Source: Candidatus Aenigmatarchaeota archaeon
Lineage (GTDB): Archaea; Aenigmatarchaeota; Aenigmatarchaeia; QMZP01
Assembly (NCBI GenBank): GCA_016198605.1
Contig: JACQIG010000080.1
Coordinates: 1 to 39,197, forward strand
Direction: 5' to 3'
DNA length: 39,197 nucleotides
Shown: in pieces, positions 1 to 25,500 of the stretch
Position numbering within the stretch: position 1 is the first letter of the stretch
How the letters are laid out: the number at the start of each line of letters is the position of its first letter
Translations under genes and position numbers: made by a program
Notes under the pieces: generated by a model
Told to the model about the DNA's origin: nothing
Database searches by the model: none
Seen by the model: the letters and a program-made list of their open reading frames with translations, nothing else

Positions 1-2600
1 GTGAGGGCCCCCGACAATGTTAGTCCCCGACGTATTAGTGATGTTCCATGACGTATTAGTGATGTTCCATGACGTATTAGTGATGTTCCATGTGATGTTC
101 CATGTGTTGTTCCCAAAAGTGTCATTGGCATTGTTTGTGTTGTTGAAGTGGTTGTCAAATATCAGGTTGTTGCTTGATGGGGGGAGGCTATTGGCTATGG
201 TGAGCCCCACAGTATTCTGGGTGATGGTATTGCGTTGGACGATATTCTGCACGGATGTGAGCCTTAGAGATATCCCGGCGGAGTTGCCGGTGACCGTGTT
301 GCCAAAGATGATATTGCCGCCCGCGCTCTCAAGACTTATGGCATCAAAGGACCCTGATATACTGTTGCCCCTTACCGAATTGTAGTCCCCGCCAAGCGTC
401 AGGCCTTGGCCGTTGTTTGTAAACATGGAATTTTCTATCCTGTTGCCGCCACGAGTGGTGAACACCCCAAAACTGTTGCCAACAAGCGTGTCATTGGTGA
501 TCGTGTTGTTATAGCCGTCAGCGTTTATCCCCCTATCAAAGCCCTCTATCGCGCAGTTCTTTATTGTGGTGAAGTTGTAAGGCCCGGCATCAATGCCTGT
601 GCTGGAGGGGGTGCTATTACCAATGATGCTGAAGCCGCCGCAGTCCAGGGTCACGCCATTCGCGCCTATTATTATGCCACTGGAAGAGCAGTTAAGGCCC
701 TCTTCCAGAGTAGTATTTCCGGTTATGGTATCGCCGCAGGTAAGCACATCTATGAGAGGCGCGAAATCGCCGCCAATTGTTATGTTGCCCGAGGCATTAT
801 ACGGCAGTTTGGTGTCCCCAATGCCGTCGCCATCCAGGTCTGTCCCGTTATAGTCGCGCCAGAAGTTGCCAGCCAGGAATGGCCCGCCCACTATGTTGGT
901 GCCAGATGTCTTTGCGATGTTCCATGTATTGAGGCCGCTATCCTTCGCATTAAGCTGGTTGCCGAAGATGTTATTGTATATTGTATTGCCGCTTGCGTCC
1001 TCAAGCAGTATCCCAACGGGGCTGTTTTCCACAGAATTATCCCTGATCATGTTGGATGATGAGTTCAGTATCAGCAGGCCGGCTTCGCTGCTGCTGATAT
1101 AATTGGCCAGGACAGAGTTGTTGGAGCTCAGATCAATGATGACGCCGAATATGTTCATAGTCACATTATTTGACTGTATTAGGCTGTAGGTGGTGTTGTG
1201 CAGCTCAATATTTGCCTTGTTGCCTGTTATGTTTATCAAATAGGAGTTCTCTACAAAACCGGTATTGAATATGCTTCCTGACACGGTTATGTTTGACGAG
1301 TTCTCTATCATTAGGCCGTGGACGAAGCTGTCCGCTGAGCTTACGCCTGATATGCTTCCTGATATTGAATTGCTGAAGAAGATGCCTGTATCTGCGCCTG
1401 TTATCGTCCCCCCGCTTATACTGTTGCCTGATGTTGAAGTGATGAGATATCCGACAGCGACGTTGCTGACCGTGTTGTTTATGAATGTGCTCCTGTTTGT
1501 CGTGGCATTAAACCCGGCTGCCTGGCCCTCATGCACGATGTTGCCCTGGAACAGGTTGTCTTCCGATTCTATCTGCAGGTTGACAATATCCGGCCCACTT
1601 GCTGGATTGCTTATGTCATTGTAGAGGACGGAGTTGGAGTCCGCATTCACAAGCGAGAGGCCGTTGTTCATTGTGTTCCCGGAAAGCATGCTGTTGAATG
1701 TCAGCGTAAGTAGCACGCTGCCATTATCGTTGTTGATGATTCCATTGCCTGAAATTACATTGCCGTAGTTTGAATTCTTTACATCCACTCCTATGCCCAG
1801 GTTGTCGCTTATCCTGTTGCCATATATGGAGCTCGTATAGAGGCCGTTTGCCTTTATTCCGCCGAGGTTATGATGAAGATAGTTATCGGCTATTTCGTCA
1901 AAGTATGAAGTATCAATGTTTATGGCCTCCAAATAATTCAGCAGTTCACAGCCCCTTATCCTGGCACCATTCCTGAAAGCAACACCCAATCCTGTAGCCG
2001 CCTGCGTGCCCACAAGGACGGTTCCGTCACACCTGACAGTAACATTATTGCCTGTTATCTGCATCCCGTCAGGAATCTCATAAGTGCCTGGGCAGAACAG
2101 CGTGCTTGAGCCGATGCTCATGCCATTGACAGGCGTGGTGCATACGTGGCACGCAAAGGTGCACCCTGTCGTGCCTTCGTCGTCCCAGCCTGTCGCCTGG
2201 TTGCAAATGTTGCCCCCTCCCTGGTAGCTGCCAGACATAATTATGTCCTGCGCGCCATTGTCGCAGGCCTCATTGTCCGCCACTTTGCCACCTGTTCCGC
2301 TTATGTCCAGCCCGTTTGCGACATTGTCCTTGACTATGTTGTTAACAAGCATGCTGCTGTTGCCCTGCACGCTGATGCCATTGAGGTGGTACTCAAGGAT
2401 GCAGTTCTGCACCGTGACATTGTATGCCATTGAATCCAGGGTTATGCCACTTACTGTCCCATCACCGGTAAGCGTTGACCCGAGGCAGTCAAGTGTTATG
2501 TTGCTCTTTGTAACATTCACGGAAGCAGCGCCGTCAGAGGTTATGCACAGCACGTCTCCTGGCTCAGTGAAAAGCATCTCCCGCTCGATGTCGCCGTCTC
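1..2600 (-). other. Two further parallel beta-helix (PbH1/NosD-like) modules of gene C.
   Basis: Translation shows repeated ~22-aa turns (..[27 protein letters not shown].., ..[27 protein letters not shown]..). A NosD-like cap motif, [35 protein letters not shown], lies near 760-930, and a second cap begins at the window edge. Confidence 0.75.
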
Positions 2601-8600: not shown

Positions 8601-10932
8601 GTTTAGTTATATTCTTGATACCCTCGCTTTCATTTATTATGTCGCTTCCTGTTTTTGTGGCGTTCCATGGCTCCGTATAGAACGTTATCGCGAACAGCTC
8701 GCCGGTGTCATAATTGATTGACAGGTTGACATGCGTGTTATTGGATTTAAGCGAATAGTTGTCCAGCTGCGGACTACCTGAAGTTATATATGTGTTGGGC
8801 AGGCCGGTGCCCTGGCCCATTGTATAGGTGGCTATGAGCTTGTTTTCGTCACCGTTGACAACGCTTCCGCCATTGCCTGTCTGGGTTCTGGACCACGACC
8901 TCTGGGGGGCGCCCTTGATTACCAGCTCGTAGCTTATAGTCACCCAGCCTTTCCTCCAGAGCCCGCGGTTGCAATAATGGACATTTACGTTGAAGGCGTT
9001 GGGGGTAAACAGCGCGACATTAACAGAATTATCTCCCTGGGTATCCCTTGAGAGCTCCTTGTAAGAGACTATCTCATAGGGGACGGGGGGCTGGTATTGG
9101 AGGGACTCATCCCTGCATTTCCTGGACAGGGTGCCGCCCCTCACAAATTTTTGGGATACCACGACAGTCTTGGTGTCATTAAACAATTCCCTGCCCAGGG
9201 CGGTTATCTCATAGGCGAAGCCCTGCGGTGGGCTCTGCGTGCCGGCCGCTGTTATGGCGTAACTGAATGGGTGGTTTATGGCCTCAGCGGCCTTCTTGCT
9301 GGCGTGCAGCTCAAATTCAGGCTCGCTGACTATCCACGCATAGAACTCCTGGCTTTTGTCCGTGATGAATATGTCGCTTCCAGGGTTTCCGTAATACGTG
9401 TTCCCGCCAAAGGTGATTGACATGTTGCTTATGCCGCTTATATTGGCATTGCACCCACTCCTGACGTTCACTATGAACTTGTCATAATCCATGTCATTGA
9501 CTATGCCAAACCCCTCAAGGATGCACGTGCCTGGGAGAGGGGGCAGGAACGACTGTTCGTCAACTGTGTCCGCTATGACCTTGTAGGTGAACGAATGGTT
9601 GATGCATGTGTGATTCTCTATGTGCTGGTTGGGTGCGCAAACAAGCCCCGTGCATATCCCTGCCGTGCAGACCTCTGCCGGCAAACAGTCATCATTTGTT
9701 GCGCAGGTAACTGGCATGAACGGGACCAAGGGCAGGAAATCGCCGCCATTGGCTATGTTGCCATTGTTATCATAGGGGATTTCTGTGTCCCCCAGGCCGT
9801 CGCTGTCCGTGTCGCTGCCGTTGTAATTGCTCCAGAAGTTGCCGCCAAGGAAGGGGCCACCCACAATGTTGGTGCCTGCCTGCTTTGGGATGTTCCAGGT
9901 GCTGGCGCTGACATTATAGGCTGTATTCATCGTATTATTGAAGAAGTTATTGAATATGGTATTGTTATTTGATTCTGAGATTGCAATGCCGAAATCATTG
10001 CTGAATATTGAGTTGTTATTGATGTTATTTAAAGATGAGTTGCTGACTTGAATGCCAGCAAAGTTAAATGATAGTGAATTGGAATGTACCAGATTATTGG
10101 AGGATGACGAATCCAGTATTATACCTATAAAACCCCCGCGTGCAATATTGCTTGCTATGGTGTTTGAACTGGAAGAAAGCAGATAGATGGGTGCTATCAT
10201 GTCCTGAATTATGTTTGAATTGACTGTATTGCCTGATGATGAGATGATAAATACCCCCGCATTGGCGCTTATGTTGCTATTGCTGTTATTAATAATATTT
10301 CCGCTAATTACGCCATTCGCAGACGAATTCAGTATAGCCCCAAAATAATTATTGTCAAACGTGTTGTTAGCTGTGTAGCTTGACGTCACCTGATAATAAT
10401 CGATCCCGGTGTTAAACATTTTTATTGTGCAGTTCCTGACGGTGACGTTTGATTTCCCCTGCGCTGATATGCCAAAACCAGTCCCATTGCCGGTTATAGC
10501 GTGGCCGCCGCAGTCAAGGGCAACGTCATTGGCTGTTACGTTTATGCAGTCGCCATCAGCCGTTATGTTGCTGGTCAGGTAGAAAGTGCCGTTCTTATCC
10601 AAGTCGGCGCAAAAAAGGGAGATGGTAAAATCGCACGCATCACCCACGCCGTCGCCGTCCGTGTCCACCTGGCTGGGATTGAATACCGTAGGACAATTAT
10701 CAAAACTGTCGTCAAGCCCGTCACAGTCCTGGTCCCCAGGACACAGCAAGGTTTCTGATGACCCATATGATTCCTCAATGACAACGGGCGCAGCCAGGGG
10801 TTCTGCATCGCCTGATGGGCCAGTCTGGACAATGGCCCGCTGGCCTGTTATGGAAGGGGAAAGGGCCATCAGGAATGCTGCGACCGAAAGGACAGAAACT
10901 AAGACTATTGTTACGCCTGCCACCCCAATCAT
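1..10932 (-). CDS. Giant secreted multidomain surface protein with an embedded I9-propeptide/S8 subtilisin module. It is 3'-partial: the C-terminus lies beyond the left window edge, and at least 3644 codons are present here.
   Basis: The minus-strand frame with codon low ends = 1 mod 3 is open from position 1 up to an in-frame stop at 11029-11031. The supplied ORF track omits it because no stop falls inside the window. The first ATG is at 10932 and reads [25 protein letters not shown], a hydrophobic signal or anchor. An alternative GTG at 10953 would add an Arg-containing n-region (VWINTR). The frame was verified at the start, at the S8 Asp codon (6388-6390) and at position 1. Plus-strand shadow ORFs keep a constant frame offset across the region, consistent with one continuous sense frame. 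Confidence 0.85.
   Translation of the reverse strand, partial: [3644 protein letters not shown]
29..115 (-). repeat. In-frame 21-bp tandem repeat: three perfect copies plus two truncated or decayed 12-bp copies, encoding WNITNTS units.
   Basis: gacgtattagtgatgttccat is identical at 29-49, 50-70 and 71-91. gtgatgttccat follows at 92-103 and gtgttgttccca at 104-115. The minus-strand translation reads ..[36 protein letters not shown]. Confidence 0.95.
2760..3340 (-). other. Two PKD-like beta-sandwich domains. A TSP3 Asp-rich repeat block lies immediately C-terminal, at ~2630-2745.
   Basis: Translations: ..[40 protein letters not shown].. and ..[36 protein letters not shown]... These are followed by [37 protein letters not shown], checked codon by codon over 2620-2760. 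Confidence 0.75.
3340..3660 (-). other. CARDB-like domain.
   Basis: Translation: [87 protein letters not shown]. This is the typical CARDB pattern: DL.v, G..v.i...v.N.G, and a terminal NN. Confidence 0.75.
4610..5290 (-). other. Alpha/beta-hydrolase (lipase/PGAP1-like) fold with a non-canonical nucleophile elbow.
   Basis: Codon-by-codon translation of 5101-5160 gives [20 protein letters not shown]. Canonical lipases read LVGHSMGG here. Downstream elements ..[10 protein letters not shown].. and ..[12 protein letters not shown].. (4621-4680) resemble the strand-loop motifs that carry the acid residue in this fold. Confidence 0.5.
5440..6420 (-). other. Peptidase S8 (subtilisin-like) catalytic domain with a complete triad.
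   Basis: Asp motif [18 protein letters not shown] (Asp codon 6388-6390). His motif [15 protein letters not shown] (His codon 6223-6225). Ser motif [18 protein letters not shown] (Ser codon 5560-5562). [12 protein letters not shown] lies between them. Confidence 0.92.
6440..6790 (-). other. Subtilase pro-domain (inhibitor I9-like).
   Basis: Translation ..[83 protein letters not shown].. lies directly N-terminal of the S8 Asp motif. The Y.Y..ingFag.....l..L...p.Ve.Ie pattern is typical of I9. Confidence 0.6.
7860..8150 (-). other. PKD-like domain.
   Basis: Translation: ..[89 protein letters not shown]. Confidence 0.65.
9720..10750 (-). other. TSP3 Asp-rich repeats followed by the first parallel beta-helix (PbH1/NosD-like) module.
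   Basis: Translation: [38 protein letters not shown], then ..[42 protein letters not shown].. and Asn/Ser-rich helical turns. It ends in the cap motif [35 protein letters not shown] (~9780-9900). Confidence 0.8.
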
Positions 10933-11033: not shown

Positions 11034-14000
11034 TTAAAGCTCCCTGTATACAGGCTTCTCCCTATTGCTTCCTCCTGGCTGGGCAGGGCAGCTAGCGGCT
11101 TGCGCATCCGCAACCCATGTGTCTCCCTGGAACATGCCGTTTGCATTGCCCCCGAAAAGGACTGCATTGCCCCTGATCGTGTCATATGCCAGTCCCGCCT
11201 CTGCCCTACCTGAAGGGGCTGCTGTTGCATAGGCCAGCTGCCAGCTGGTGCCGTTCCAGGCCCATGTCTGGTTGGCATAATTGCCGCTGCTGTCCCCGCC
11301 GAAGAGGAGCATTTTGCACGCCTCCTGGCTGAAGGCCATGGCAGGCCAGCGAAGAGCAGGCGGACCTACTGTTATCTTCTGGGCCCAGGTGCTGCCATTC
11401 CATGCCCATGTGTCTCCAAGCTGGCCTGATGCATTGCGACCTCCGTATAATATGACCTCATTCCTAACAGGATCGTATACCATGGCATGCTGGAATCTTG
11501 CCGGCGGGCTTACAGAAGGGAACCTTTGGGTCCATGTCACTCCATTCCAGGCCCATGTCTGGTCCAGCAGCCCATTTTCAGCCGAGCCCCCGAAGAGGAC
11601 GGCCTCTTCCCTGGCTGGATCATATGCCATGGTTGCATGGAACATCTGCGGGGGGCTTGCCGCTGGGAATTTCTGCGTCCAGGCAGAGCCGTCCCACGTC
11701 CACGTGTCGCTGTAGCGGTTATCGTTTACGCCGCCGCCGAACATTACCACTTCCCCGCGCGCTGAGTCGTATACCATCGCATGCGTATCCCTTCTTGGTG
11801 GCTTGGCAGCCAGTGATTTTTGTGCCCAGCCTGTCCCGTTGAATACCCATGTATCATCCGATTCCCTTATCGTATCCCCGAGGAAGCCGCCGAACAGGAC
11901 AACCTCGCTCCTCAATCCGTCATAGGCCATTCCAAACCTGCTCCTTGGCGGAGGGCTTGGGGACGGCGATAGCTGCGTCCAGTTTACCCGGCCCGTCACT
12001 ACGTTAGGGTCAGTCTCGCCTGGATCCGTGGCGCCATTGCCATTTGCGTCCTCTGTGCCGTCAGGCACGCCATCGCTGTCGGTGTCTGTATTCAGGGGAT
12101 TCGTGGTTGAAGCAGGATCAGAGTCAGGCACGAAGATGGCAAGATTGGTCCCTGTGCCTTCCGGCGCCACCAGCCCCTTCTCCGTCCCGTCAAGTATGCC
12201 GTCCCCATCCGTGTCAGGGTTGGCAGGGTCCGTCTCCCCCGGGTCCACTATGCCGTTTGCATTCAGGTCCTCTGTTCCAGTGTTCCCGTCAGTCAGGCCG
12301 TCGTCATCGCAGTCATCGTCAAGGGGGCAGGGGTCCAGGGCGCCCACAAGGCCGTCGCCGTCGCTGTCCGCCACCAAAGACATGAAGTATGTCCAGTTCC
12401 AGTACTGCCCCGGGTCCGTGTGGTGGTTTATCCCACCGCCTTGCCCAGGGTCATTTGGGTCTGGAACCTGGTCGTGGCCTATTATGCCGCCTGAAGCCAG
12501 GGGGTCAGCCGGCGCTATGCCTGCAGGATGGACCAATGGAACGCTGTATTTCTGTGCAAGCCACGCGGCAACGCTGGCCGAAGCCATGTACATCTCTTCC
12601 GTGTATGCGTCAGGGTCGCTTACAAAGCCCTCGTGCTCTATGCCTATGGAATGGAGGTTGTAATTGAAATTGCCTGCATGGTAGGCCACGTCTTCCCCGC
12701 CAACCATTGCAGTGATTCCGCCTGCCCCGCTTATAACGTAATGCGCGCTTCTGCCCGCGGCCGGGTCTTGGAAGGTGTTGATCGCGCTTTGGTAGCTGCT
12801 TTCTGTCGTATGGATTATTATGTAATTGATGTCATAGCTGCTTTCCCTGTCGCTGTCCTGGTAGCCGTTTGTATGCGCAGGTGTCCAGATGGAGCCGGGA
12901 TAAATAGTCCCATTGAAGCCAAAGCGTTTCCATGAGTCATAAAACAAGAAAACGCCTCCTACAGATGGCTGGTCTCCTCCCCACTGGACGCCCGCATAAG
13001 GCGTATATGTAAACTGGCCGGCAACAGCCTTGTTGGCAGGTGTGACCATAACACCATCGAGTGTCATCTTCGCGACGCCCACCTGCCACCCGGAAACCGT
13101 GGATCCCGTATTTGTAAGCTGGTCATGATAAACGCGGAACCTTTCCGCCGCGCACGTGAGCTGCTGGCGCGCGGTCGTAGGGGAAATGCATCCCATAAGG
13201 AATCCCATTTGCGAATCAGACGGCCTGGTAGTCCTTGTCACCCCTGATATTTCCTTCTGGAGTGTGGCAAGTATCACCTTAGGGTTGATGAGATACTGGT
13301 CCGCTGCCTGCTTGATTACAACGGCAGCGTCAAATATAACGCCATCCACGTCCGGGACAGGCCGGCTGAAATAACTGTTTTGGGCTGACAAGAAGGCCCT
13401 TATGTCATTTGAGGACATGGAATCATAGTCCTCCAGCCCAGAGTCAGTTATGAATTCCGTATTATACGCTGATGTCACGTTGCCGGAGGAGTTGGTATTG
13501 AAATACAGCCGGCCTGAAAAGTTGCTCGCGCCAGCGCCGTTGAACGCCCTCATGTTCCAGCGGTAGTCAAATCCCTGCTGCAGGTAGCCCGCGGGCAGGG
13601 TGAAAGAGGTCCCGGCTATCTGGCCGTAATCAACCTCGCTGTCAAACACTAGGTTGCCTGGCCCGAAAGGCGACTGGCTTATGTATATTGCATAATAGCT
13701 GGCGCTTGGCGCTGCGCTCCAAGTGAATGTCGGCGTGGTGGTGGTTATTACCTCTCCTGGTGGGCCTGAAACTGTCCCAGGGGATATTGGCGTGGGCGGC
13801 GACTGCATTGTGCTTACTGAAAAATACCATGGATCAGTGAATCCGCTTGCGCCTGCGCCATTGAAGGAGCGCATGTTCCAGCGGTAGCTTTCGCCGTCCA
13901 GCAGGTAGCCCCCAGGGAGGGTGAAAGAATTGCTGTAAATCGGGCCGTAATCAAAGTCGCTGTCAAACACCAGCACACCAGTAGCTATGTTCCTAACGTA

Positions 14001-15581
14001 AAGGCCGTGGTAATCCGCATTGGAATCGCTGTTCCATTGGAACGTGGGGGTTGTCGCATTGATTATAGAACTGTTGGAAGGAGACAGATGAACAGGCGCG
14101 TCTGGCGGCAGGAGAGGCGCCTGGGGCGTTGCGCTGACCTCGTTTGAGAATGCGCCCTCGCCTATGGAATTCAGCGCTGTCACCTTGTAATAATATGTCA
14201 CGCCATTTGCAACCAGCGTGTTGTTGAACGTGGTGAAGGCTGATGATATTGTGGCATAGTATGACTCGCCCCCCAGGGATGTCCCGCGGTATATGTTGTA
14301 TTGCGCCACTGCCGAGCCGCCGTCAGAGGCCGGCGGGCTCCACCCAAGGAAAACGAAGCCGTTCCCCACATCAATAACAATGAGATTCTGCGGTGGCGTA
14401 GGTGTCGTAGCCGGCATGGGCACTGTCGCGCTCGCCTCGTTTGAGAACCCGCTGTCCCCGGCTGAATTGACAGCCTTAACCTTGTAATAATATGTCTGGC
14501 CAGCCACGAGGTTGGCCGTGTTGTTGAACGTCGTGCCTGGTGTCGCCGTGGTGAAATAAAGCGTCTCGCCTCCGGGGGACGTGCCCCTGAATATCTTGTA
14601 ATTGGTCACGGGAGAGCCGCCGTCGCTTGAGGGCGGGTCCCATGCCAGGAGTATGTGGCCAGGCCCGGCATCAGGCACGCGCAGGTTGAGCGGCGGCGAC
14701 GGGACAGTTGCCGGGTTCTGCGTAGTGAAGCCCCACTTTGGCGACCACTCGCCATAAAATGAGGCGCTCCTGCCGTGGACGGTCCAGTAGTAGGTTGTCC
14801 CGGCGCTTAATATACCCGGGGCAGGCTGGTATGAGGTAGACGATGTTTCCGCATTTATGGCGCAATTAGAGCATGTACTCACCGTAGGGTCTGTCGGCAG
14901 GGCGCTGGAGCTTGTGGAGACCATTATCCTGTATGACGTAGCGCCGCTGGCTGATGACCAGCTAAAGGTTGGTGTCATGGAAACGCCTGCAGCCCCGTTG
15001 GAGGGGGACGAAAGCGCAGGCGCAGGAAGTAGGTATTCCACAAAATCCTCGGCCACCCAGCCTGTTATGCCGCCAAAGCTGGCTTTCCAGAAATGGTAGA
15101 AGCCTCCCCCGCCGGTCGGCACGCCGTAAAAAGGCCCGCTCACCACAGTCCCTAGTGTGCCCTCAGGGACGCTTCCTATGTCCTGAAGGCCGGGAGGGTC
15201 GCTCCTGACGTTCAAGGGAGTGCCGTCTATGTAGGATACGAGGAGCCTGTCAGTTAGGCTGAACTTGGTGGAAGGCGTTATGGATACCTTAAGCAGGAAG
15301 TCCTCGGCTGACCAGCCCTCCAGGCCGTCAGACCACCTGACCTTATACCTGTTGAAGCTGTTGCAGAAAGCAGGGCCGCCAATCACTGTCCCGCGGCTCC
15401 CTGGAGCCTTGGAGCCTGTCTGCGCATCGCAGGCGTTTGGCCCGCGCACCACCAGGTTGCTGCCGCCCGTATTGAACACCTCTACGGTATCTCCTGCAGT
15501 GACGTGCGTGGCGTAGGCAAGCGTGACAAACATGAGAAGCAAAACTGCAGACCCTCCCAAGATCGCGGCTGTTTTTTTCAT
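11034..15581 (-). CDS. Secreted multidomain peptidoglycan hydrolase-like protein. Domain order: signal peptide, SH3b x2, FN3-type domains, orphan domain, Amidase_2 (N-acetylmuramoyl-L-alanine amidase), TSP3 repeats, Kelch propeller.
   Basis: The ORF-track frame is 11034..15659. I place the start at ATG 15579-15581 because MKKTAAILGGSAVLLLMFVTLAYA-THV is a classic Sec signal. A G7 Shine-Dalgarno-like tract (15587-15593) lies 5 nt upstream. The track start at 15657-15659 is a TTG lying inside the promoter palindrome. Confidence 0.9.
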   Translation of the reverse strand: MKKTAAILGGSAVLLLMFVTLAYATHVTAGDTVEVFNTGGSNLVVRGPNACDAQTGSKAPGSRGTVIGGPAFCNSFNRYKVRWSDGLEGWSAEDFLLKVSITPSTKFSLTDRLLVSYIDGTPLNVRSDPPGLQDIGSVPEGTLGTVVSGPFYGVPTGGGGFYHFWKASFGGITGWVAEDFVEYLLPAPALSSPSNGAAGVSMTPTFSWSSASGATSYRIMVSTSSSALPTDPTVSTCSNCAINAETSSTSYQPAPGILSAGTTYYWTVHGRSASFYGEWSPKWGFTTQNPATVPSPPLNLRVPDAGPGHILLAWDPPSSDGGSPVTNYKIFRGTSPGGETLYFTTATPGTTFNNTANLVAGQTYYYKVKAVNSAGDSGFSNEASATVPMPATTPTPPQNLIVIDVGNGFVFLGWSPPASDGGSAVAQYNIYRGTSLGGESYYATISSAFTTFNNTLVANGVTYYYKVTALNSIGEGAFSNEVSATPQAPLLPPDAPVHLSPSNSSIINATTPTFQWNSDSNADYHGLYVRNIATGVLVFDSDFDYGPIYSNSFTLPGGYLLDGESYRWNMRSFNGAGASGFTDPWYFSVSTMQSPPTPISPGTVSGPPGEVITTTTPTFTWSAAPSASYYAIYISQSPFGPGNLVFDSEVDYGQIAGTSFTLPAGYLQQGFDYRWNMRAFNGAGASNFSGRLYFNTNSSGNVTSAYNTEFITDSGLEDYDSMSSNDIRAFLSAQNSYFSRPVPDVDGVIFDAAVVIKQAADQYLINPKVILATLQKEISGVTRTTRPSDSQMGFLMGCISPTTARQQLTCAAERFRVYHDQLTNTGSTVSGWQVGVAKMTLDGVMVTPANKAVAGQFTYTPYAGVQWGGDQPSVGGVFLFYDSWKRFGFNGTIYPGSIWTPAHTNGYQDSDRESSYDINYIIIHTTESSYQSAINTFQDPAAGRSAHYVISGAGGITAMVGGEDVAYHAGNFNYNLHSIGIEHEGFVSDPDAYTEEMYMASASVAAWLAQKYSVPLVHPAGIAPADPLASGGIIGHDQVPDPNDPGQGGGINHHTDPGQYWNWTYFMSLVADSDGDGLVGALDPCPLDDDCDDDGLTDGNTGTEDLNANGIVDPGETDPANPDTDGDGILDGTEKGLVAPEGTGTNLAIFVPDSDPASTTNPLNTDTDSDGVPDGTEDANGNGATDPGETDPNVVTGRVNWTQLSPSPSPPPRSRFGMAYDGLRSEVVLFGGFLGDTIRESDDTWVFNGTGWAQKSLAAKPPRRDTHAMVYDSARGEVVMFGGGVNDNRYSDTWTWDGSAWTQKFPAASPPQMFHATMAYDPAREEAVLFGGSAENGLLDQTWAWNGVTWTQRFPSVSPPARFQHAMVYDPVRNEVILYGGRNASGQLGDTWAWNGSTWAQKITVGPPALRWPAMAFSQEACKMLLFGGDSSGNYANQTWAWNGTSWQLAYATAAPSGRAEAGLAYDTIRGNAVLFGGNANGMFQGDTWVADAQAASCPAQPGGSNREKPVYREL
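11041..11055. repeat. 15-nt element tccctgtatacaggc with a perfect 12-bp palindrome, CCTGTATACAGG, at 11043-11054. It overlaps the last codons of gene B.
   Basis: Read directly from the sequence. The minus strand encodes ..EK-P-V-Y-R-E-L-stop. An identical 15-mer lies at 16519-16533. Confidence 0.95.
11110..11990 (-). other. Kelch-type beta-propeller (about six blades).
   Basis: Six repeats of the form P.PR..HAMVYD..R.EVVLFGG.......L.DTWAWNG..W.Q. Examples: ..PPRRDTHAMVYDSARGEVVMFGGGVNDNRYSDTWTWDGSAWTQ.. and ..PPARFQHAMVYDPVRNEVILYGGRNASGQLGDTWAWNGSTWAQ... Confidence 0.85.
12000..12390 (-). other. Thrombospondin type-3-like calcium-binding Asp-rich repeats.
   Basis: Translation: DSDGDGLVGALDPCPLDDDCDDDGLTDGNTGTEDLNANGIVDPGETDPANPDTDGDGILDGTE...NPLNTDTDSDGVPDGTEDANGNGATDPGETDPN. 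Confidence 0.8.
12395..12840 (-). other. Amidase_2 / PGRP-type N-acetylmuramoyl-L-alanine amidase domain.
   Basis: Translation: YDINYIIIHTTESSYQSAINTFQDPAAGRSAHYVISGAGGITAMVGGEDVAYHAGNFNYNLHSIGIEHEGF..YTEEMYMASASVAAWLAQKYSVPL...GIIGHDQV...HTDPGQYW. This matches the family hallmarks I.iH.t, ahy.i...G.i, AyHAg..N..siGIE..G, GH and DPG. The frame was checked at 12393-12404 and 12831-12836. Confidence 0.85.
14125..14700 (-). other. Two fibronectin type III domains.
   Basis: Translations: PSPPLNLRVPDAGPGHILLAWDPPSSDGGSPVTNYKIFRGTSPGGE..GQTYYYKVKAVNSAGDSGFSNEASA and PTPPQNLIVIDVGNGFVFLGWSPPASDGGSAVAQYNIYRGTSLGGE..GVTYYYKVTALNSIGEGAFSNEVSA. Confidence 0.85.
15030..15500 (-). other. Two bacterial SH3 (SH3b)-like domains.
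   Basis: Translations: GDTVEVFNTGGSNLVVRGPNA..GSRGTVIGGP...YKVRWSDGLEGWSAEDFL and ..GTPLNVRSDPPGLQDIGSVPEGTLGTVVSGP....FWKASFGGITGWVAEDFV. These fit the l.vRs.p, G.v and gWv....l pattern. Confidence 0.65.
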
Positions 15582-15657: not shown

Positions 15658-15682
15658 AACTTTAAAGTTTATAAATCCCCGT
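15658..15682. promoter_or_regulatory. Shared divergent promoter/operator region between gene B and the regulator. It has a 12-bp palindrome, AACTTTAAAGTT, abutting a palindromic TATA box, TTTATAAA.
   Basis: AACTTTAAAGTT (15658-15669) and TTTATAAA (15668-15675) are each their own reverse complement. Purine-rich BRE-like flanks lie on both sides. The regulator ATGs at 15691 and 15697 lie 16 and 22 nt downstream of the box, suggesting a leaderless mRNA. For gene B the same box would give a 5'UTR of about 60 nt ending in the G7 SD-like tract. Confidence 0.5.
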
Positions 15683-15690
15683 TTTACAGG

Positions 15691-16491
15691 ATGGATATGA
15701 AGCATGATGCGCTGTTCCCGGTAAGCAGCTCCACAAAGGAGCAGATAATAGCAGTCCTGTCAGGCGAGTGGCCCCTGTCGGCGAGGAAGGTTTACACAAG
15801 GCTCCTGAAAAAACACAACATTTCCTTGACCTACCAGGCCGTGCATAAGGCCCTCAGGGAGCTTACCGAAAGCAGCATCTTGGAAAGGGAGGGCACAGGC
15901 TACAGGCTTGCGGAAGCATGGATCGCGCATCTGGGAAATTTCAGCCAGAAGATGAAGGATGAGTATGACAGCGTACATGTTGCCAGGGAGACCAGGGCCC
16001 TGCACAGGTTTGTCTTCACGAAGCATTCGGACTTTGTCAGATTCCACCTGGACCTTGCCCGGAAGCTCCTCGAATCAGGCAAGCAGGTGAAGATGACATT
16101 CCATATGAGGCACGTGATATACCCCTTCCTTTTGCTTGCCGTCGAGGAACACGGGAAGTTCAAGGAGCTGCTGGGGAAATCAGAATGGGTAATCCTCTCA
16201 AAAAACGCGACAGCCATGGACGAGTGGTGCGCAAAGTACTGGAGGAGGCTGGGAGTGAAAGTCACGCTAGGTGCTGATGTCGCAACCAACTCCATCCTCA
16301 TCGTCACCAATGACTACATAACCGATGCGCGCCTGCCAAAAAAGGCCCTTGGGGCGTGGGACAAGCTATTTGAATCGGTGAACGTCAAGAATTTTGACGC
16401 TAATAGGATGAATGAAATAATACTTGAGCAGAAATTTGAGACAGTTGCCACCGTCTTCAGGGACAGGAAAATAGCCGACATGCTGGCCTGA
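15691..16491 (+). CDS. Winged-helix-turn-helix transcriptional regulator (MarR/TrmB-like N-terminus) with an uncharacterised C-terminal domain of about 190 aa.
   Basis: Complete ORF, translated line by line. The N-terminus reads KEQIIAVLSGEWPLSARKVYTRLLKKHNISLTYQAVHKALRELTESSILEREGTGYRLAEAW, which fits helix, helix, recognition helix and wing. The true start may be the second ATG at 15697 (MKHDALF) if the mRNA is leaderless. Confidence 0.8.
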   Translation: MDMKHDALFPVSSSTKEQIIAVLSGEWPLSARKVYTRLLKKHNISLTYQAVHKALRELTESSILEREGTGYRLAEAWIAHLGNFSQKMKDEYDSVHVARETRALHRFVFTKHSDFVRFHLDLARKLLESGKQVKMTFHMRHVIYPFLLLAVEEHGKFKELLGKSEWVILSKNATAMDEWCAKYWRRLGVKVTLGADVATNSILIVTNDYITDARLPKKALGAWDKLFESVNVKNFDANRMNEIILEQKFETVATVFRDRKIADMLA

Positions 16492-16494
16492 TGG

Positions 16495-16499
16495 TTTTT
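16495..16499 (+). terminator. Oligo-T tract just after the regulator stop codon; a possible archaeal-type terminator.
   Basis: The sequence tga-tgg-TTTTT-gg follows the stop codon at 16489-16491. Confidence 0.3.
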
Positions 16500-16511
16500 G
16501 GATGGGCGCAA

Positions 16512-19500
16512 TCATAAATCCCTGTATACAGGCGGCTCCGTCCCGCCGCCCCCGGGCGGGAGCACGCTTATGGCGACTTCTTCCCGGTCTGACAGGCTTC
16601 CGTCCGTGGCTGCAAACGTTACCGTGTAAGTGCCCGCGCTATTCGCGGCCCATTCAAAATAGCCTGTGCCGGCGTCAAAATAATGCGGTTCAGGCAGGAC
16701 AGAAGCCGCATTGGTGCTGAACAGCATGGCGTCGCCGTCGGGATCAGAGGCTGAAAGCTGTATTATGAGTGTCCCGCCATCAGGCACTGTCCTGTTCCCT
16801 ATTGCTTCCATCACCGGGGGATTGTTTGGCTGGCAGGCCACTATGGCCTTGCCACCCATGTTCATCTTCTCGGCTATGTCCTTCGCCCTTGTAGTATCTA
16901 CGGATATGAGGGATTCGGCCTCTGCTATAGCCTGGCTTACTGTGGTGGAATTGGACAATGGCGTCAGGTTTACCTGCGTCTGAAGGAACAGCTTGCGCGA
17001 GGCCAGGTTAAGCCACAATGCAAGCAGCTGCCTGTTTGCCTGCTGCAGCATGCTGGGCTTCTTCACGTCGAGTATCATGCACATTGCCTTGAAGCTGGTG
17101 GTGTTGTCAAAGAAGTCAGTCATGTTGTGTATCCTGGCCAGGTAGGATTCCATGGAGGACCTGTTCTCGTTATTGAAGTTGCCATTGCATGGCTGCGACC
17201 AGTACCCTGCGGTGCGAGGGTCGCATACGCCTATGCCGCTGGTATTGTCAAATATTGTGATAGTCTCCTCGTCTGACAGGAGCCCATCCGTCACATTGAA
17301 CAGCACCATGTACGTGCTGGAATCATTAGCCTGCCTTGTCCACTGGAAGAAGCCTGTGGCGGGATCAAAGAGGAATGGCCCCTGCAGCACGGAGCCTGCA
17401 TTTGTCCCGAATGCAAGGGTGTCATTGTCAGGGTCGCTTGCTGACAGCATTATGGCGAGGGTCTCATTCCTTGCCACGGACTTGTTGCCTACCGCATCCA
17501 GCACGGGCGGGCGGTTCACGCGCAGGTCAATGACCGTTATTGCTATCATCTCGCTGTCGTTGGCCAGGCCGTCCGAGACGCTGAAGGTGACGCTGTATAT
17601 GCCTGAATCATTCAGTGTCGGAATCCACTCAAACAGGCCTGTTGCTGCATTAAAAGCAAATGCACTCGGGAGCACGGAGCCGGCATCCGTCGTGAATATT
17701 AATGTGTCATTGTCCGGGTCAGCTGCAGACAGCTGTATGGCAAGGGACTCATTCTCCCCGACAGTCCTGTTGCCCACCGGATCCAATACAGGTGGCCTGT
17801 TTGTGGCGTTTATTTGCATATCCCTTACGGTTATGGATATGGTTTCGTTATCCGCAAGCTGCCCGTCGGATACATTGAATGTCACGCTGTATATGCCTGA
17901 ATCATTAAACGTGGGCGTCCACTCAAACAAGCCAGTTGCTGCATTGAAGGCGAACTGACTGGGCAGTATGGAGCCCGCATTTGTCCCGAATGCGAGAGTG
18001 TCGTTGTCCGGGTCCGCCGCCATGAGCTGGATGAGCAATGTCTCATTCTCATCAACTGTCCTGTTGCCTATTGCATCAAGGACAGGAGGCCTGTTTAGCG
18101 GGACATCAACCACCGTTATGGTCACAATCTCGGCATCGGCCAGCTGGCCATCGAATGCGATGAACGTGATATTGTATTCTCCGGCGTCATCAAATGTCGG
18201 GATCCAGGAGAACAGTCCTGCTGTCTCATTGAAGGCGAACGGGCCGGGCAGGACAAGGCCCGCATCGGTGTTGAATATTATGGTGTCATTGTCCGGGTCG
18301 CTTGCAGTGAGCTGTATGGCAATGCCCTCATTCTCGTTTACCGTCCTGTCCCCCACCGGGTCCAGCACCGGGGGCCTGTTTACGTCAAGTATGGTGATGG
18401 AAACAGCCTGCGAGTCAGCCAATATGCCGTCCCCGACTGTAACCAAAACAGAAAGGAATCCTGCATCATCAAATCCCGTCTGGAACAGGAAGGCGCTGCC
18501 GTTCTGGACGAACACCGTGTCGTTGATGAAGACGGTGAGGTTATTGTCATCGTTGGCGGGGGCATTCTGGTTGTCAGGGTCGCTGGCAACGGCCAGGATC
18601 ACTGCTGTCTCTGTCTCATTGACCGTTACATCAGGCATGAAGTCCAATACAGGCGGCCTGTTGGTGTTCAGGACCTCTATTGTTATTGCCTCGCTGCCAG
18701 TCTGGTTGCCGTTCGTGACATTGAACAGGACCGAATAATTGCCTGAATCGTCAAACGCCGGCGTCCAGCTGAACAGCCCTGTGGCCGCGTTGAAGGAGGG
18801 CTGGCTTGGCAGCACGGACAACGCGTCTGTTCCGAACAGCAGTGGCGCGCCGGCGGGGTCAATTGCGGTGAGCTGTATGTCCAGCGTGGCGTTCTCTGCC
18901 GTAGCCCTGTCACCCACAGGATTCAGTATCAGCTGGCCTGGGACTGCCACGAGGACCGTTATGTTCCTTGAGACGTTTGCAAGGCTGTCTGATACGGTCA
19001 CCTGCACCTGGTATGTGCCTGGCTGCACGCTGTCATCCACGAACACGCTCCTGAAGCCTGAAGACAGATCTCCTGACAGGTTGAAGGTCCCGGATGCAAA
19101 CGCGAATGTGAGGTTGCCCGCCCTCATGAACTCCTCCAGCGGGATGACCGAAACAGTGAATGAGTCACTGTCGGAGGCGCCGAACACGTCTGTCACGCTC
19201 ACGTTTATCCCGCTGGTGCCTATCTGGCCCGGGACGGCAGAGCAGGCCAGCACGTGGCCCGATGCAACAGAGCAGTTCAAGACGCCCGTATTGCCCTGTC
19301 CTGCCACGGCATAATCAAGCTCCGCGATGTCCTGCTCATTGTCCCTTGTGAACTCCAGCAGGTCCATCAGCAGCGTGCCGTTTTCAAATATCGCCTCATC
19401 GGGGATGCCTGCCATCTCTGGCGGCGTGTTGAACAGTATCAGGGTAAAGTTATATGAATCCTCCATCTTCGTCCCATCCCTGTTGACCAGGGTGGCATTG

Positions 19501-22500
19501 TCGCCGTCTACAGCCATGAACAATACCCTGAACAGCCCTTCAGGGTGGCTTGAAGTCGCGGAATTCCATTCAAATATGTTGGCGAGCGCTGCCTGGTTCT
19601 CAGGTCCTGGGAGGACCCTTGCATTGCTGAGCCTTGTGAATTCATCCATCCATGCGCTTCCGTCAAAGAACTGCACCTTCATCAGCAGGCCCACTGTGGT
19701 GTTGGAAAACTCGTTGTTCTGCAGCTTGGACTCTGTCCCGTCCTCAACGAACATGTTTATGCACTGCACATTGCTGTCCGCAAGGCCATCGCTCACCTTA
19801 AGGCAGACCTCAGACCTTCCTGCATCAAGGCCCGTTACGGAGAGGGACCTGCCTGTTATTGTTGCCATTGCCTTCTGGGTATCACCCTGTGAGACTATTG
19901 AATGGGTTATTGCATCACTCTCCATGTCAGTGCCAAAGAAGCCCAGGTCAATGCTCCTGACCTGGCCGGGCTCAAGGCTCATGTCAGGGATGTTCCTCAG
20001 CTGCGGGGGCTGGTTTGGAACGGCGTGGGTTGCCTCTGGCGTGGAGACAGCTTCAAAGCCGTCCGTACATGTTACCCGGGTTGTAATAACTGCATCTGGC
20101 ATTCCCGCCACAAGCGCAGAAGCCAATCCATTATCTATTTCCATATCTATGGTGCTGTTGTCCGCTGAAAGCGTGCAGGATATTGCCTGGCTATCGGCAT
20201 CTGAAACCTTTACGAGGACTTCAAACGCGTGCTCACCAAGAACATCCCTGAATGCCTGCCCGGAGACGGCAGGCCCTGAGTTGACAAGCACCGTGGTGTC
20301 CATGATTCTTCCGTCTGCGTCTATGTATCGCAGGTGGAACGCTCCAGGGCTGCTGAACGCGACAGCGCTGTTATTTATCCTTATGCTGGGTATGCACCTG
20401 CTTGTCTCGTCAACGCAGAAGGTTGTGTCGCCTGATATGCTGACTGAAGATCCTGGCGCTAGTATGCCGCCCTGGTAATCATCAAATATGGCCGCTTCAG
20501 GCTCAACGCCAAATTCTATGTCCACGTTCTGGCTGTTGACCTGCTCATTGCCCAGCACATCCACGCAGCTTACATAGGCCCTTGTAAGGTTTGTTATCTT
20601 GTCCTTTGACGGGTCCACCTTCGTGAGGTTGCCAAGGTTGCAGTTGGCAAATTCCCCTGCAACGGCGCACTCATTCTCCAAAAGCGAGTAGCTCCTGTCC
20701 TTGTGGAACCTGTTGAGCAAGTCCTTGCCCCACCTGCACCTCATTCCAGGCTCCCCCTGGATGGCGGCAATGGTCTTGGAATCGTCCACAGCATCAACAA
20801 GGCCGGCCGTGTCTGAAGCAAGGGCAAATAGCCTTGTAGCAGGCGGCGCGGAGTCTGTCGTGTAGTTGCCGGATATGGAAAGGCTTGCCAGGCTCTTCCC
20901 GTCCGACAGGAATGCAAACCAGGTATGCAGCATATCATCCTTTTCGGCCGCGAATGAGCAGCCTGGGTTGAGCCTTTCAGTGGACTGGCAGTATGTGCCG
21001 CCTGAGCAGCCATTGATGCCACCAGCCTGGTTGGTCTTGCAGACATACAAGGTGAGCAGGTCGCCGTCAGGGTCAAACGCATTAGTCCTTATGCCCACCC
21101 TTTCACCGCCCTTTATCTCTTCCGCATTGTCAAACGCCCCTGACAGGGTGGGCCTCGTGTTCTGTGCAACCTTGGAGAGGCCTGAGGGCGTGGCGGGCGT
21201 GAGCCTGACAGTCTGGGTGTAGAAATACACGTCCCTGCCTGTCTTTACATTAAGGTATAATGAGTCAAACAGGTCAAATACCCTTGACGCCATGATGGCC
21301 GAATCACCCAGCCCATCCTCTGCATCCAGGCCGAGCACGTACCTGCCGCCTTCGGTATTATTGTATATTGATTTGTAGAGGCTACCTGTGCTGCTAACGT
21401 TCAGAAGCTGTGTTGAATTGTCTGGTTTTGTAAGCATTAACGCTACATTGTTTATATTATTATCCAGGTCTATTATCTCCGACCTGATGCTGACATTTTC
21501 CCCATAGCCCTGTATCTCTGGCGAGTCAAGGTATTGTATGCCAGGGCCTGCGTTCACATATATCTTCCTTGCACCCTGGTTGTTGGACTCGCTTGTCTCT
21601 ATTATTGCATCATCCGCATCAGGGAAAACCACGAACTCGTAAAGGCCCGCAAGCTCGCTTGTGTCCCAGGAGACGCTCCACATGTCTGACGAGAACGGGT
21701 GCATTGTAAGCGTTTCCCTCTTGAATTCAGTCACAGCTCCTGTGGCAACGTTCCTTGCGTATACGGTGAAGTCAAAGCCCTCTGCAAACAGCTCGCCGGC
21801 GTTCCTCATTGTGAAGTTCAGGCGGACTGTCTCCCCCTGGTCAACCGTGTATGTGCACTCGCCCCTTGTCTGGTTGCCGCAGTCGCACAGGGACTGGTTT
21901 GCGAAACACGTGAGGTTGCCCTGTGACACCGCAAGCATGTGCGAGTAGTTGAGGTTTGTCACCTCAAGGTCTGTTGACCTGACAGGCACAAAGTGGTCAA
22001 GGGTTATGTCGGCATCTATGTTGAAACTGGCCGCCTTGAGCGTTATCAGGTTGCTTTCGCTCTTTGTGAATTCATTCCTGAGCACATTGCCCGCAACCGG
22101 CAGCCCGTTCACCCACATGTTTGACGTTCCTGTCCTGGATACCCTTATTTCCTGAACAGTGGAATCCACCCAAAGGTCTTTCCTGAAGTATATTGCCTTC
22201 TCATTGCCCGGGCCCACCTGGACAACGCCCCACTGCGTGTCATCAAGGAACTTGTTGCTCGCCTGGTCATCATTGAAATTGGAGCCCCTCAGCCAGTTCT
22301 TGTCATCCAGGAGCTCGTTCCAGACGCTGGACAGTTGCAGGCGCGTCTCATTGCTGACCGTGGCAGGTATGGCCAGGTCAACCTCCAGGTTCTTTGTCTC
22401 AAACGGAAGGACTGCCAGCGGTATTGACCTGAGGGTGACCTCGTTCCTGTTCCTGAAGTCCACGACGGATATCCTCATGGTGAAGTCAAGCCTCTTGTCA

Positions 22501-25500
22501 TACTTGTTCTCCACCCTGATCCTTGCTGTCACATCTTCGCCGGGCAGGACAAAGAATGGTTCCCTGTCTGGTATTACAGCCCTCTCCCTCATGCCGAAGA
22601 CCGTGAAGAAGACGTCCCTCTCGGGCTCTATCACAGTCCCGCCAGTCCTGACCTTGCCTGAGTATACCCTGCTGTCCGTGTCTGGTATTGATCCTATTGC
22701 GGATATTATGTTCTCCTGCGCCTGCTTCAGGCCGGAGGTTATGCTGATGGGCGACCAGCCAGGATAGCCTGAGCCCTGGAACTCGCCATTGAGGTAGACG
22801 TCCGTAGTGAATGACTGGTCTCCAAGCACCATCTCCGCCCTCGTGACATCCCTCGGCACGAAGAAGTGCTTCCTGTATTTGCTGTCCTCGCCGGTGGGCA
22901 GCGTGTCACCCCAGTGGTAGTCTCTCGTCCCCTCGGCAAGAATCTCCTGCTGCGTTGCCTCCCTGTTCCTGTTCCAGAGCCTGTCGGGGAAGGAGAAAAC
23001 CCTCTCCACCTGCACTGCAAGCCTTGACCTGAGCGGGACATCGCTGGGTATTATCACGCGGAAGGAGAGGTTGATGCTTGACTGCGGCGGTATTGTCCTC
23101 GGCGTGGTGTCGGTCTTAAGGTCCACCTTCTTGTTCTGCGGCGTGACAAGGGTCACTTTTATCACGTCCACCGTGGCAGGGTCGTCATCATTATTGGTGA
23201 CGGTGAAGTTGACGGCCTCCTCGAACTGCCTCCTCAGCAGGCCGTTTTCCCCTATCCCTGTTATGTCCAGCTGGAAGGCCTCCGGTATGGGTTCCACTGT
23301 GGTGTTCTGGATGTAATCAACCGTCACTGAATCATAGAACGTGATGTCAAACTGCCTGTGGGGCCCTAGGGAATACAGGTCAAACTGGCTGTTTCCCCCT
23401 ACTTTCAGCTCGTCAAAGTTTGGCGTCCAGCCGAATTCTATGTCAGCGCATTCCGTAACCTGGCTTGTCTTGAGCTCCCCGTTGATCCAGCTCGTGACAC
23501 CTGAGGGCGGCTCGGTGGCGCAGAACTGGCCGCAGCAGCAGTTCTGCTGCAGCTTGATCTTCTGCTCGGATTTTATCAGCGTCTTGGGTATCCATACAAG
23601 CTTCCTCAGGAAGGACTCCTCAAAGCCGCAGCCAAAGCCCTCATCGCAGACGATGCAGTTGATGCCATGCTGGAAGTCCTGGTCCCCCCACGGCCCGGGG
23701 TCGGTGAACAGCGTGACATTGGAGCTGTCATAAAGGCTTGACGCCGGCAGGTCAGAGGCAAAGCGCCTGCCGCCAAGGAAGCCCTCGTCGGACTGCTGGG
23801 GCCACAGCTCTGCTATGTTGGACCTGTCATATTCATTATCTCCCAATGTGTGCTTCTCCACTCCCTTGACAAGCAGCATTGCTTCCAGCGGGACGCCGTC
23901 AGGAATGTAAACCTTGTATTTCCTTGAGACTGTCTGGCCTGGCGGAAGGTTGAAGCCGTTGGTGTCGGTGAACAGGCTGATTATCCTTGCGCTGTCAAAC
24001 GTCGGGACTGTTATGTTGACAGAGGCGTTCCCGACGGTCTTCTGCCCTGTCTCAGGGCCCTGGTCAAACAGCTCTATGGCTATCCTGTCTATGTTGAACG
24101 CCCTCCTGTTGTTGTTGGTCACGCTCACATCCACGTCCTCTACGTACCCGGGCTTCAGCTCCAGGCCGAACTTGTTGTCTATCTGCAGCTGTATGGCAGG
24201 CTTATCCGGCTTCACTATGTCATAATCCATCCTGAGTATGTTGGTGAACCTCCTGATTTCCCCCGAGCCCACTATCGTGTTTGTCTCGTTCGGCACGAGG
24301 TTGTATATCGGGCACCAGTTCTGCACGCAATTGAAGACGCGGGACATTGTGCCGTTGAAGAACACCCTGTAGGAGCCCTTGTATTCAAACGTGGTGTTCG
24401 GGTCCACGAACAGGTCAAAGGTGTTCCCGCCGAGCTGCGGCCTGTTTATGAATATTGGCGCTCCCTTGGAGCCGCTTATCAGTGTATTCTCCCCGCAGCC
24501 AGCCTCACCCAGCTCGTAGAAGTATGAGGGGTTGACGTTCTCCTGCTTGCTGGCGCGGACTCCCAGCAGCGCGCCATCAGGCATGTCCTGCGGCACGTCT
24601 ATGTCATATTCCAGCTCTATTGCGGACTGGCTTCCTATCCTCTTGCCTTTCAATATGATGTCAAGGGTATCGCACCTGGTGCCTGACCGCCTCAGGACCT
24701 GCGCGTCCTTGGGGCCATCCAGGAACAGCTGGGTAATCTTATTGCCATTGGATCCGTTGAAAGCGGAAAGCTCCACCCTGCCTATGTCAACCTGCTTCCT
24801 TGCGAAATTGATTACCTGCACATTGACAGGCTCAAAGTAACCCTTCCTCAACTGTATGTGCGTGAAGTTGTTGGATCCGAACACAAGGTCCAGGTCGGCG
24901 TCAGCGTCCAGGTCAGCAAGGGCTGGCCTGTAGTCAAGCCTGCCTGGTATGGACAGGTTGAATCCTGTCATGTTCCATGCAGGATCAGTTGAATTGCCAA
25001 TGTTTTGCAGCGTTATTATGCCGCTCCCGCTTCCAACCATTGCATCAAAGTCGCCGTCCCCATCAAGGTCCTTTATGTCAGGCGCTGCATTGGAGCCGAG
25101 GCCTATGCCTGTAAGGTTGAAGCCATTTGGGGCCCAGTCGGGGGCTGCCAGGGTTCCTGTGTTTTCATAGCCCATAAGGTTCCCGAACTGGTTGCCAATA
25201 ATAAGATCCAGATCAGCGTCCCCGTCCAGGTCGGCGAACCTGGGGATTGCACGGAATGTCTCCGCCACTTTTGAAAGGTTGAAGCCGAATTCTGCCCAGG
25301 AACCCTTGACTATGAATTCATTCTGGCCCGTGCCCGGGTTAAAGACATTTTGCCCTACAAATACCCTCTTGTAGGCCCTAAGCTTGCCGTGCGTATCTCC
25401 TACAACCAGGTCTGCAAGCGTGTCCCCGTCCAGGTCTGCAAATTCAGGTGCTGAGCGGGCACCAACGTCAAGCGTGGAGACGGCTATTGTCTGGCGGTTT

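Follow-up and report, generated by a model that had tools for sequence, protein, structure and literature searches.

Why should two otherwise unrelated proteins of an archaeon end in nearly the same peptide, with four residues in a row written in the same codons? The question is raised by a 39,197-bp stretch of DNA (hereafter the window), which is the whole contig JACQIG010000080.1 of an Aenigmarchaeota metagenome-assembled genome (MAG). Here, the products of two large genes, designated A and B, terminate in PVYR[DE]L, and the DNA encoding the residues P-V-Y-R is a perfect 12-bp palindrome, CCTGTATACAGG. An earlier reading of the letters without database searches (the sequence-only reading) had offered three explanations: a short C-terminal sorting, anchoring or processing tag, a binding site for a dimeric DNA-binding protein such as the regulator encoded beside gene A, or, at the stop codon, a hairpin in the RNA or a signal coupled to termination. 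Our analysis supports the first of these best: P, G, G and L of the shared tail are kept through different codons, complete domains precede the tail, it is predicted to be disordered, and it occupies the position at which related giant proteins bear known sorting modules. With a probability of about one half, the tail serves secreted surface proteins as a portable C-terminal peptide tag specific to this lineage, probably a docking or processing signal that needs a free C-terminus.

A shared C-terminal tail

As had been read from the sequence, protein A ends ...LPPGGGGTEPPVYRDL-stop and protein B ...AQPGGSNREKPVYREL-stop, the last codons reading PPVYRDL-TGA and KPVYREL-TAA (all coordinates are collected in Table 1). 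The same 15 bases, tccctgtatacaggc, are present at both ends; the palindrome within them equals its own reverse complement and has no third occurrence in the window. The domains that precede the tails are indeed unrelated, being He_PIG/Big_9 repeats in A and a Kelch propeller in B. Given the amino-acid composition of the contig, the chance that two C-termini both end in PVYR[DE]L is about 2e-8, and the coincidence at the peptide level is therefore real. As genes A and C, the latter a third large gene, leave the contig at its ends, just two C-termini of large secreted proteins can be observed, and both bear the tail.

The shared PVYR[D/E]L ending described by the sequence-only reading is present, but this description is too short. 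The likeness extends over an ungapped stretch of 14 residues, PGGxxxExPVYR[DE]L, with 10 of the 14 positions identical. At the DNA level, a repeat finder extended the match between the 3′ ends of A and B to 51 nt with 71% identity, and in the 30 nt that precede the identical core 53% of the bases agree, compared to 27% for random in-frame A/B pairs (P ~0.003). Because the likeness reaches beyond the identical DNA, we conclude that A and B share a homologous 3′ module of about 45–50 nt.

Recombination products were considered as a source of the repeated DNA and dropped. The DNA identity does not span a stretch of the size of a variable region of a diversity-generating retroelement, and the dyad stops at 12 bp, which speaks against an att site or target-site duplication of an inserted cassette as well as against a shufflon-type recombination site.

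A third exact copy of GTATACAGGGA, a sequence found in both tails, lies in frame within gene C (amino acids 801–808, PTVYRDTN) in a region without a Pfam domain. Its V-Y-R codons are the same as in both tails. The window holds three exact copies of GTATACAGGGA and four matches with at most one mismatch (0.52 expected). The peptide-level match of PTVYRDTN to the tails is not significant (E = 0.54), and the copy in gene C may be due to chance or may be the relic of a former C-terminus.

Codon usage and the origin of the palindrome

The sequence-only reading had argued that identical codons and perfect dyad symmetry are hard to explain by selection on the peptide alone. This argument did not survive a comparison with codon usage, which was computed over all four genes of the contig. 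AGG accounts for 79% of the arginine codons and TAC for 61% of the tyrosine codons, and all four codons of two independent PVYR peptides would match with P = 0.025. Over all conserved degenerate positions of the tail, the same codon is used at five of nine, with 3.6 expected (P = 0.27), and a run of at least four identical codons has P = 0.10.

Outside PVYR, the codons differ at conserved residues, namely proline (CCC/CCA), two glycines (GGG/GGA and GGC/GGA) and leucine (TTA/CTT), the last being kept despite two nucleotide changes. The ten conserved residues of the tail carry five nucleotide differences, all five of them synonymous, and the exchange of D for E at the penultimate position is conservative. 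Residues that are conserved through synonymous changes are the signature of selection on the peptide. In addition, identical bases are more frequent in the terminal six codons (15/18) than in the preceding eight (14/24; Fisher P = 0.08), and three or fewer differences in 18 bases have P = 0.024 at the rate of the flank. This better conservation of the terminal six codons fits a functional core.

The palindrome follows automatically from the codons used, because CCT/AGG (P/R) and GTA/TAC (V/Y) are mutually reverse-complementary pairs. A single PVYR peptide is encoded by a palindrome with a probability of 0.02, and perfect 12-bp palindromes are not enriched in the window (8 seen, 9.6 expected). 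With AGG and TAC as the dominant arginine and tyrosine codons of the contig, the 12-bp palindrome is probably a by-product of codon choice. Codon usage and palindrome counts thus do not bear out the premise that selection at the DNA level is required; selection on the peptide together with shared descent is sufficient for the nucleotide identity.

Location of the tail in the two proteins

In protein A, Ig-like repeats of about 95 amino acids end in ...ITV and are followed by a linker, NRPPVLD. The final repeat ends with its last strand, EEVAISV, and beyond ...AISV only LPPGGGGTEPPVYRDL is left. Protein B carries a 23-residue extension past DTWTWG, the point at which its Kelch homologues end. 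An AlphaFold model of the last 330 amino acids of B, calculated from an alignment of 61 sequences, showed a confidently modelled Kelch propeller (pLDDT 92.7, pTM 0.90) with residues 303–308 as its last strand, and the final 20 residues, with pLDDT values of 67 and then 46, had no secondary structure. In both proteins, a complete final domain precedes the tail, an Ig-like repeat in A and the Kelch propeller in B, and the tail of B is predicted to be disordered. A flexible extension that bears a conserved terminal hexapeptide points to a short linear motif. Neither tail contains a hydrophobic run of six or more residues.

Past its TGA codon, the frame of A stays open for 65 codons including a hydrophobic stretch, and an antisense open reading frame (ORF) of 136 amino acids lies in the same frame. 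Read-through of the stop codon was rejected, since this continuation is read from the strand opposite the regulator gene, a gene with homologues. We judge the open frame and the 136-amino-acid ORF to be antisense artefacts of the regulator gene.

Proposed function of the tail

The homologous 3′-terminal module of about 45–50 nt encodes a flexible 14-residue tail, PGGxxxExPVYR[DE]L-COOH, kept by selection on the peptide. In the mechanism that we propose, this tail would act as a short linear motif that requires a free carboxyl terminus. Once the proteins have been exported by the Sec pathway, for which B carries a signal peptide, the terminal hexapeptide would be bound by a receptor on the surface or by a processing enzyme; binding would tether the distal ends of these large proteins to the cell envelope or to one another, or would mark them for C-terminal processing. 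The tail would then fill the role of the type IX secretion system (T9SS), MYXO-CTERM, dockerin or transmembrane-anchor modules found in similar architectures.

A more novel proposal can be made only tentatively, and we regard it as less probable than the tag described above: PGGxxxExPVYR[DE]L-COOH could be a new kind of prokaryotic C-terminal signal. It would be a very short tag for docking or sorting that lacks a transmembrane segment, stands on giant surface proteins of a DPANN (Aenigmarchaeota) lineage and is read by a putative receptor or processing enzyme.

DPANN archaea are thought to attach to host cells and exploit them by means of very large surface proteins. To our knowledge, it is not known how such proteins are held on cells that lack archaeosortase-type anchors. 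If true, a tail of this free-carboxylate kind that recurs and lacks a transmembrane segment would provide a new handle for finding the surface proteome of such lineages, and likewise the receptor that holds these proteins. The evidence, two copies on one contig, makes it a lead and not yet a discovery, and its most striking part, the perfect palindrome with identical codons, is largely explained by codon usage.

Search for further copies of the tail

Several results weigh against a peptide tag. In total, two instances of the tail were found, both on one contig. It was present on none of 120 Kelch homologues of the B end, among which no sequence exceeded 48% identity. A HMMER search with the last 1200 amino acids of A against all representative proteins returned 25,631 matches, and none of the best 150 of these relatives of the A repeats ends in VYR[DE]L. 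In the GTDB species genomes, a set outside which this MAG falls, the motif with fixed codons followed by [DE]L-stop gave 13 matches, all due to chance, since they were short ORFs or ended in TGG. In JGI metagenomes, the degenerate extended tail matched once, by chance, antisense to an ABC ATPase. The window encodes no receptor, sortase-like enzyme or PDZ protein. At the nucleotide level, the synonymous sites of PVYR are identical in 4/4 cases and those of the other conserved tail residues differ in 4/5; a mild excess of nucleotide identity therefore remains (P roughly 0.02–0.1, post hoc), which does not demand a function of the DNA; some additional constraint on the nucleotides may nevertheless act.

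In further searches, three matches in viral contigs were all due to chance, the homologue and collection searches found neither an orthologue of A or B nor a further protein bearing the tail, the last 200 amino acids of A as query gave three weak matches, and a literature search with the peptide strings of the tail found nothing relevant. These searches are insensitive to a bare motif of six residues and cover this MAG by its 39-kb contig alone; we estimate that a motif of 6–14 residues is too short to become significant when a library contains 2 to 6 billion sequences. The absence of the tail elsewhere is weak evidence, because neither the bare hexapeptide nor the remaining contigs of the MAG came within reach of the searches.

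When the last 250 amino acids of B were used as query, a collection of 5.8 billion protein clusters returned no self match; the regulator, which belongs to the same NCBI record, is present there. The large genes of this MAG may have remained unannotated or may have been dropped.

The small number of copies also bears on another explanation, in which the tail is a neutral or vestigial remnant of shared ancestry that does nothing by itself. It could, for example, be the cut-off beginning of another Ig-like repeat, moved along as paralogous surface-protein genes exchanged their 3′ ends. The two copies only, without recurrence in the homologue, GTDB and JGI searches, agree with such a remnant, as do the flanks, which diverge in an ordinary fashion, and the inter-repeat linker of A, whose sequence NRPPVLD resembles the EPPVYRDL of the tail. 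Protein B, however, has no He_PIG repeat beside its tail and nevertheless shows the same 14-residue register after a Kelch domain. The better conservation of the terminal six codons and the leucine retained through both of its nucleotide changes likewise argue against a remnant, which we consider rather unlikely.

The adjacent putative regulator and a possible operator

The protein encoded next to gene A allows the palindrome to be considered as an operator, bound by a TrmB-like regulator as a dimer and possibly dual-coded with the peptide. As had been noted, the regulator gene stops close to the A copy, 29 nt before the palindrome, and TACAGG stands immediately ahead of its first ATG. The regulator ORF is 100% identical to NCBI MBI4020453.1 (HY367_03910), the NCBI start being the second methionine (15697). 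The spacing of the promoter places the start of the transcript near this second ATG, which suggests that the regulator mRNA is leaderless.

An AlphaFold model of the regulator, based on three sequences, contains a confidently modelled winged helix (residues 15–73, pLDDT 70–87) composed of helices 15–25, 31–42 and 48–60 and a hairpin of strands 64–67 and 70–73. The best fold match in the PDB was the archaeal protein TrmBL2 (5bpi) with E = 3e-5, though with a TM-score of 0.29 on a model of mean pLDDT 61; Pfam and PDB sequence searches gave no match. The overall architecture of the model is putatively TrmBL2-like, with the winged helix followed by a long helix and a C-terminal alpha/beta domain. 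Apart from itself, the regulator matches two homologues, at 27% and 39% identity. Genomic context is available for one of them; this homologue is not syntenic, does not lie beside giant genes and has no similar palindrome site, and an exact look-up of the regulator sequence found no further contig context.

The stretch between TATA box and gene start is the usual site of archaeal repressors, and a 9/12 match to the palindrome, CCGTTTTACAGG, is located there in the promoter of the regulator itself, between the TATA-like TTTATAAA and the start. With up to three mismatches, the palindrome occurs 21 times in the window (14 expected), and the probability that one of them falls by chance within this 110-nt promoter is about 0.05. 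The B copy precedes the ATG of gene C by about 110 nt and a TATATAAA box by about 70 nt, with AT-rich boxes following it ahead of gene C; as an operator, it would control the gene C promoter downstream. The A copy would be a roadblock or boundary between the convergent genes A and regulator. The perfect dyad, the occurrence of one 12-mer twice where nothing comparable is expected, and the probabilities of 0.025 and 0.02 given above for identical codons and palindromic encoding can likewise be cited for an operator.

A site that acts as DNA only, however, predicts neither that the exact copies stand at the same codon offset from the stop nor that they lie within a longer conserved peptide written in differing codons. 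Downstream of the A copy there is no promoter, just a convergent gene that points its 3′ end at the copy; the dyad does not reach into the flanks, and the limits given above for the 9/12 site, the fold match and the homologue with genomic context stand against an operator as well. Dimeric TrmB proteins bind dyad-symmetric sites, for example TACT-N-AGTA or TATCAC-N5-GTGATA. These known operators do not resemble CCTGTATACAGG, the regulator has no sequence match to the family, and the two sites considered here lie within coding sequence. The winged helix, the putatively TrmBL2-like architecture and the 9/12 copy in the regulator's own promoter can be cited for the proposed binding site; identical codons and dyad symmetry make a statistically weak argument for it. 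Overall, we regard an operator, which these observations neither support nor refute, as improbable, and it seems very unlikely that the PVYR core of a new C-terminal signal doubles as a palindromic operator for the TrmB-like regulator encoded beside it.

A different perfect 12-bp palindrome, AACTTTAAAGTT, overlaps the TATA-like TTTATAAA in the 110-nt divergent promoter between B and the regulator.

RNA structure at the stop codons

Could the element act as RNA, either as a hairpin or as a stop-codon signal in termination or translation? Two codons ahead of the stop, the palindrome allows a stem of 4 bp closed by a loop of 4 nt. This hairpin has a free energy of −4.4 kcal/mol, which is no better than that of shuffled sequences (z −0.6 and −0.8), and neither the minimum-energy nor the centroid folds of the 70-nt contexts contain the stem. 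Against shuffled sequences, these contexts show no gain in folding either (z = +1.0 and +1.1). No terminator-like site and no Rfam match was found at either copy, and the two stops are not followed by a common T-tract. The proposal of an RNA signal is not supported by these results, and we reject it as extremely unlikely.

The contig and its other features

Four genes fill the window (Table 1). The sequence-only reading had spoken of two unrelated giant proteins; they are unrelated, but B, with about 1515 amino acids, is large and not giant.

Table 1. Coordinates of the genes, shared elements and other features of the window.
Feature	Position	Strand	Description
Gene A	16512..39197	minus	>7561 aa, N-terminus beyond contig edge; FG-GAP, Laminin_G_3, many He_PIG and Big_9 repeats
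Gene B	11034..15581	minus	~1515 aa; Sec-type signal peptide (MKKTAAILGGSAVLLLMFVTLAYA), then fn3, Amidase_2 and Kelch propeller
Gene C	1..10932	minus	>3644 aa, C-terminus beyond contig edge; N-terminal hydrophobic anchor; TSP3, NosD beta-helix, PKD, subtilase S8
Putative regulator gene	15691..16491	plus	266 aa; convergent with A, divergent from B
Tail of A	16515..16556	minus	14 codons, PGGGGTEPPVYRDL; stop TGA 16512-16514
Tail of B	11037..11078	minus	14 codons, PGGSNREKPVYREL; stop TAA 11034-11036
Identical 15-nt stretch, A copy	16519..16533		tccctgtatacaggc
Identical 15-nt stretch, B copy	11041..11055		tccctgtatacaggc
12-bp palindrome, A copy	16521-16532		CCTGTATACAGG, four codons P-V-Y-R
12-bp palindrome, B copy	11043-11054		CCTGTATACAGG, four codons P-V-Y-R
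Third copy of GTATACAGGGA	8510..8520	minus	in frame within gene C
9/12 match to palindrome	15679..15690		CCGTTTTACAGG, between TATA-like box and regulator start
TATA-like box	15667-15674		TTTATAAA
Another perfect 12-bp palindrome with TATA-like box	15658-15674		AACTTTAAAGTT overlapping TTTATAAA
TACAGG	15685-15690		ahead of first ATG of regulator
Region past stop of A	15888-16511	minus	contains open frame of 65 codons and antisense ORF
Antisense ORF	15900-16310		136 aa, same frame as continuation of A
Tandem repeats	1-360	minus	N-glycosylation-sequon-like, NNTWNITWNITNTSWNITNTSWNITNTSGTN
Rfam match in gene C	2511-2543	minus	L19-Flavobacteria ribosomal leader

Residues 942–1072 of protein B form an Amidase_2 domain (N-acetylmuramoyl-L-alanine amidase, E = 2e-25) between the fn3 and Kelch parts. 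A secreted protein of this kind in a DPANN archaeon suggests, from its domain content, an action on bacterial peptidoglycan. The visible part of gene C ends at the contig edge in tandem N-glycosylation-sequon-like repeats, which may be the reason for the assembly break at this point. The match to an L19-Flavobacteria ribosomal leader (31.7 bits, gathering score 31.5, E = 0.024) is almost certainly a false positive, because it lies inside the coding sequence of gene C and in an archaeon.

Comparison with known C-terminal signals

Among the best 150 relatives of the A repeats, many end in recognisable sorting or anchoring modules. In sampled relatives, a T9SS type A sorting domain (TIGR04183) or MYXO-CTERM was confirmed; other ends look like dockerin or like a transmembrane helix with a basic tail. 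The NCBIfam sorting-domain models, in a scan that detected the control sequences, gave no match to the last 150 amino acids of A and of B; the sole hit remained below threshold (16.8 bits, cut-off 37) and lay in an Ig repeat outside the tail.

Sortase-type signals are tripartite and consist of a signature motif, a transmembrane helix and a basic cluster. Like them, the tail is a brief signature at the very end of multidomain surface proteins that are exported by Sec and otherwise unrelated; it stands behind a linker rich in Pro and Gly and is portable between domain architectures. Sortase-like systems named in a preprint are LPXTG/sortase, PEP-CTERM/exosortase, PGF-CTERM/archaeosortase A, GlyGly-CTERM/rhombosortase and MYXO-CTERM/myxosortase (bioRxiv 10.1101/2023.06.07.544157). 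Unlike PGF-CTERM, LPXTG, PEP-CTERM and MYXO-CTERM signals, the tail has no transmembrane helix, the stop following two residues after PVYR, and no C-terminal basic cluster, the endings being RDL and REL; this agrees with the sequence-only reading, which had described the tail as free of a hydrophobic helix and a basic end. It further differs from sortase-type signals in that no curated sorting-domain model matches it and no processing enzyme is encoded within the window.

The T9SS domain (TIGR04183) and dockerin-like ends occupy the same position in proteins with repeats of the He_PIG/Big_9 type. They are, however, folded domains of 60–100 residues, in contrast to 14 residues that are predicted to be disordered, and T9SS is a system of the bacterial outer membrane, the host here being an archaeon.

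In public data, two other recurring C-terminal endings were observed on unrelated giant repeat proteins (P0134, P0136, P0138, P0164 and P0146, P0148, P0235). These endings, ...RNADYKAIYEKKLAEIKERQKQ and ...GYRNRDYYEKVKLQIGNPDGKRYRRMKK, follow a hydrophobic segment and may be undescribed conserved anchor tails.

The tail also resembles ligands that are recognised by their free carboxylate, such as PDZ ligands (e.g. the YxF tail of outer-membrane proteins sensed by DegS), substrates of tail-specific proteases and the KDEL-type retrieval signals of eukaryotes, which are likewise very short, comprise the last residues and stand on a flexible extension. As in the [DE]L-COOH of KDEL-type signals, an acidic residue and leucine form its end, a resemblance that would be one of mode only. 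The PROSITE pattern for retention in the endoplasmic reticulum (ER) is [KRHQSA]-[DENQ]-E-L; YRDL and YREL do not fit it, and an archaeon has no ER. By analogy, the tail appears to hold the position at which similar giant proteins carry their sorting signal, yet in form it seems unlike any known one.

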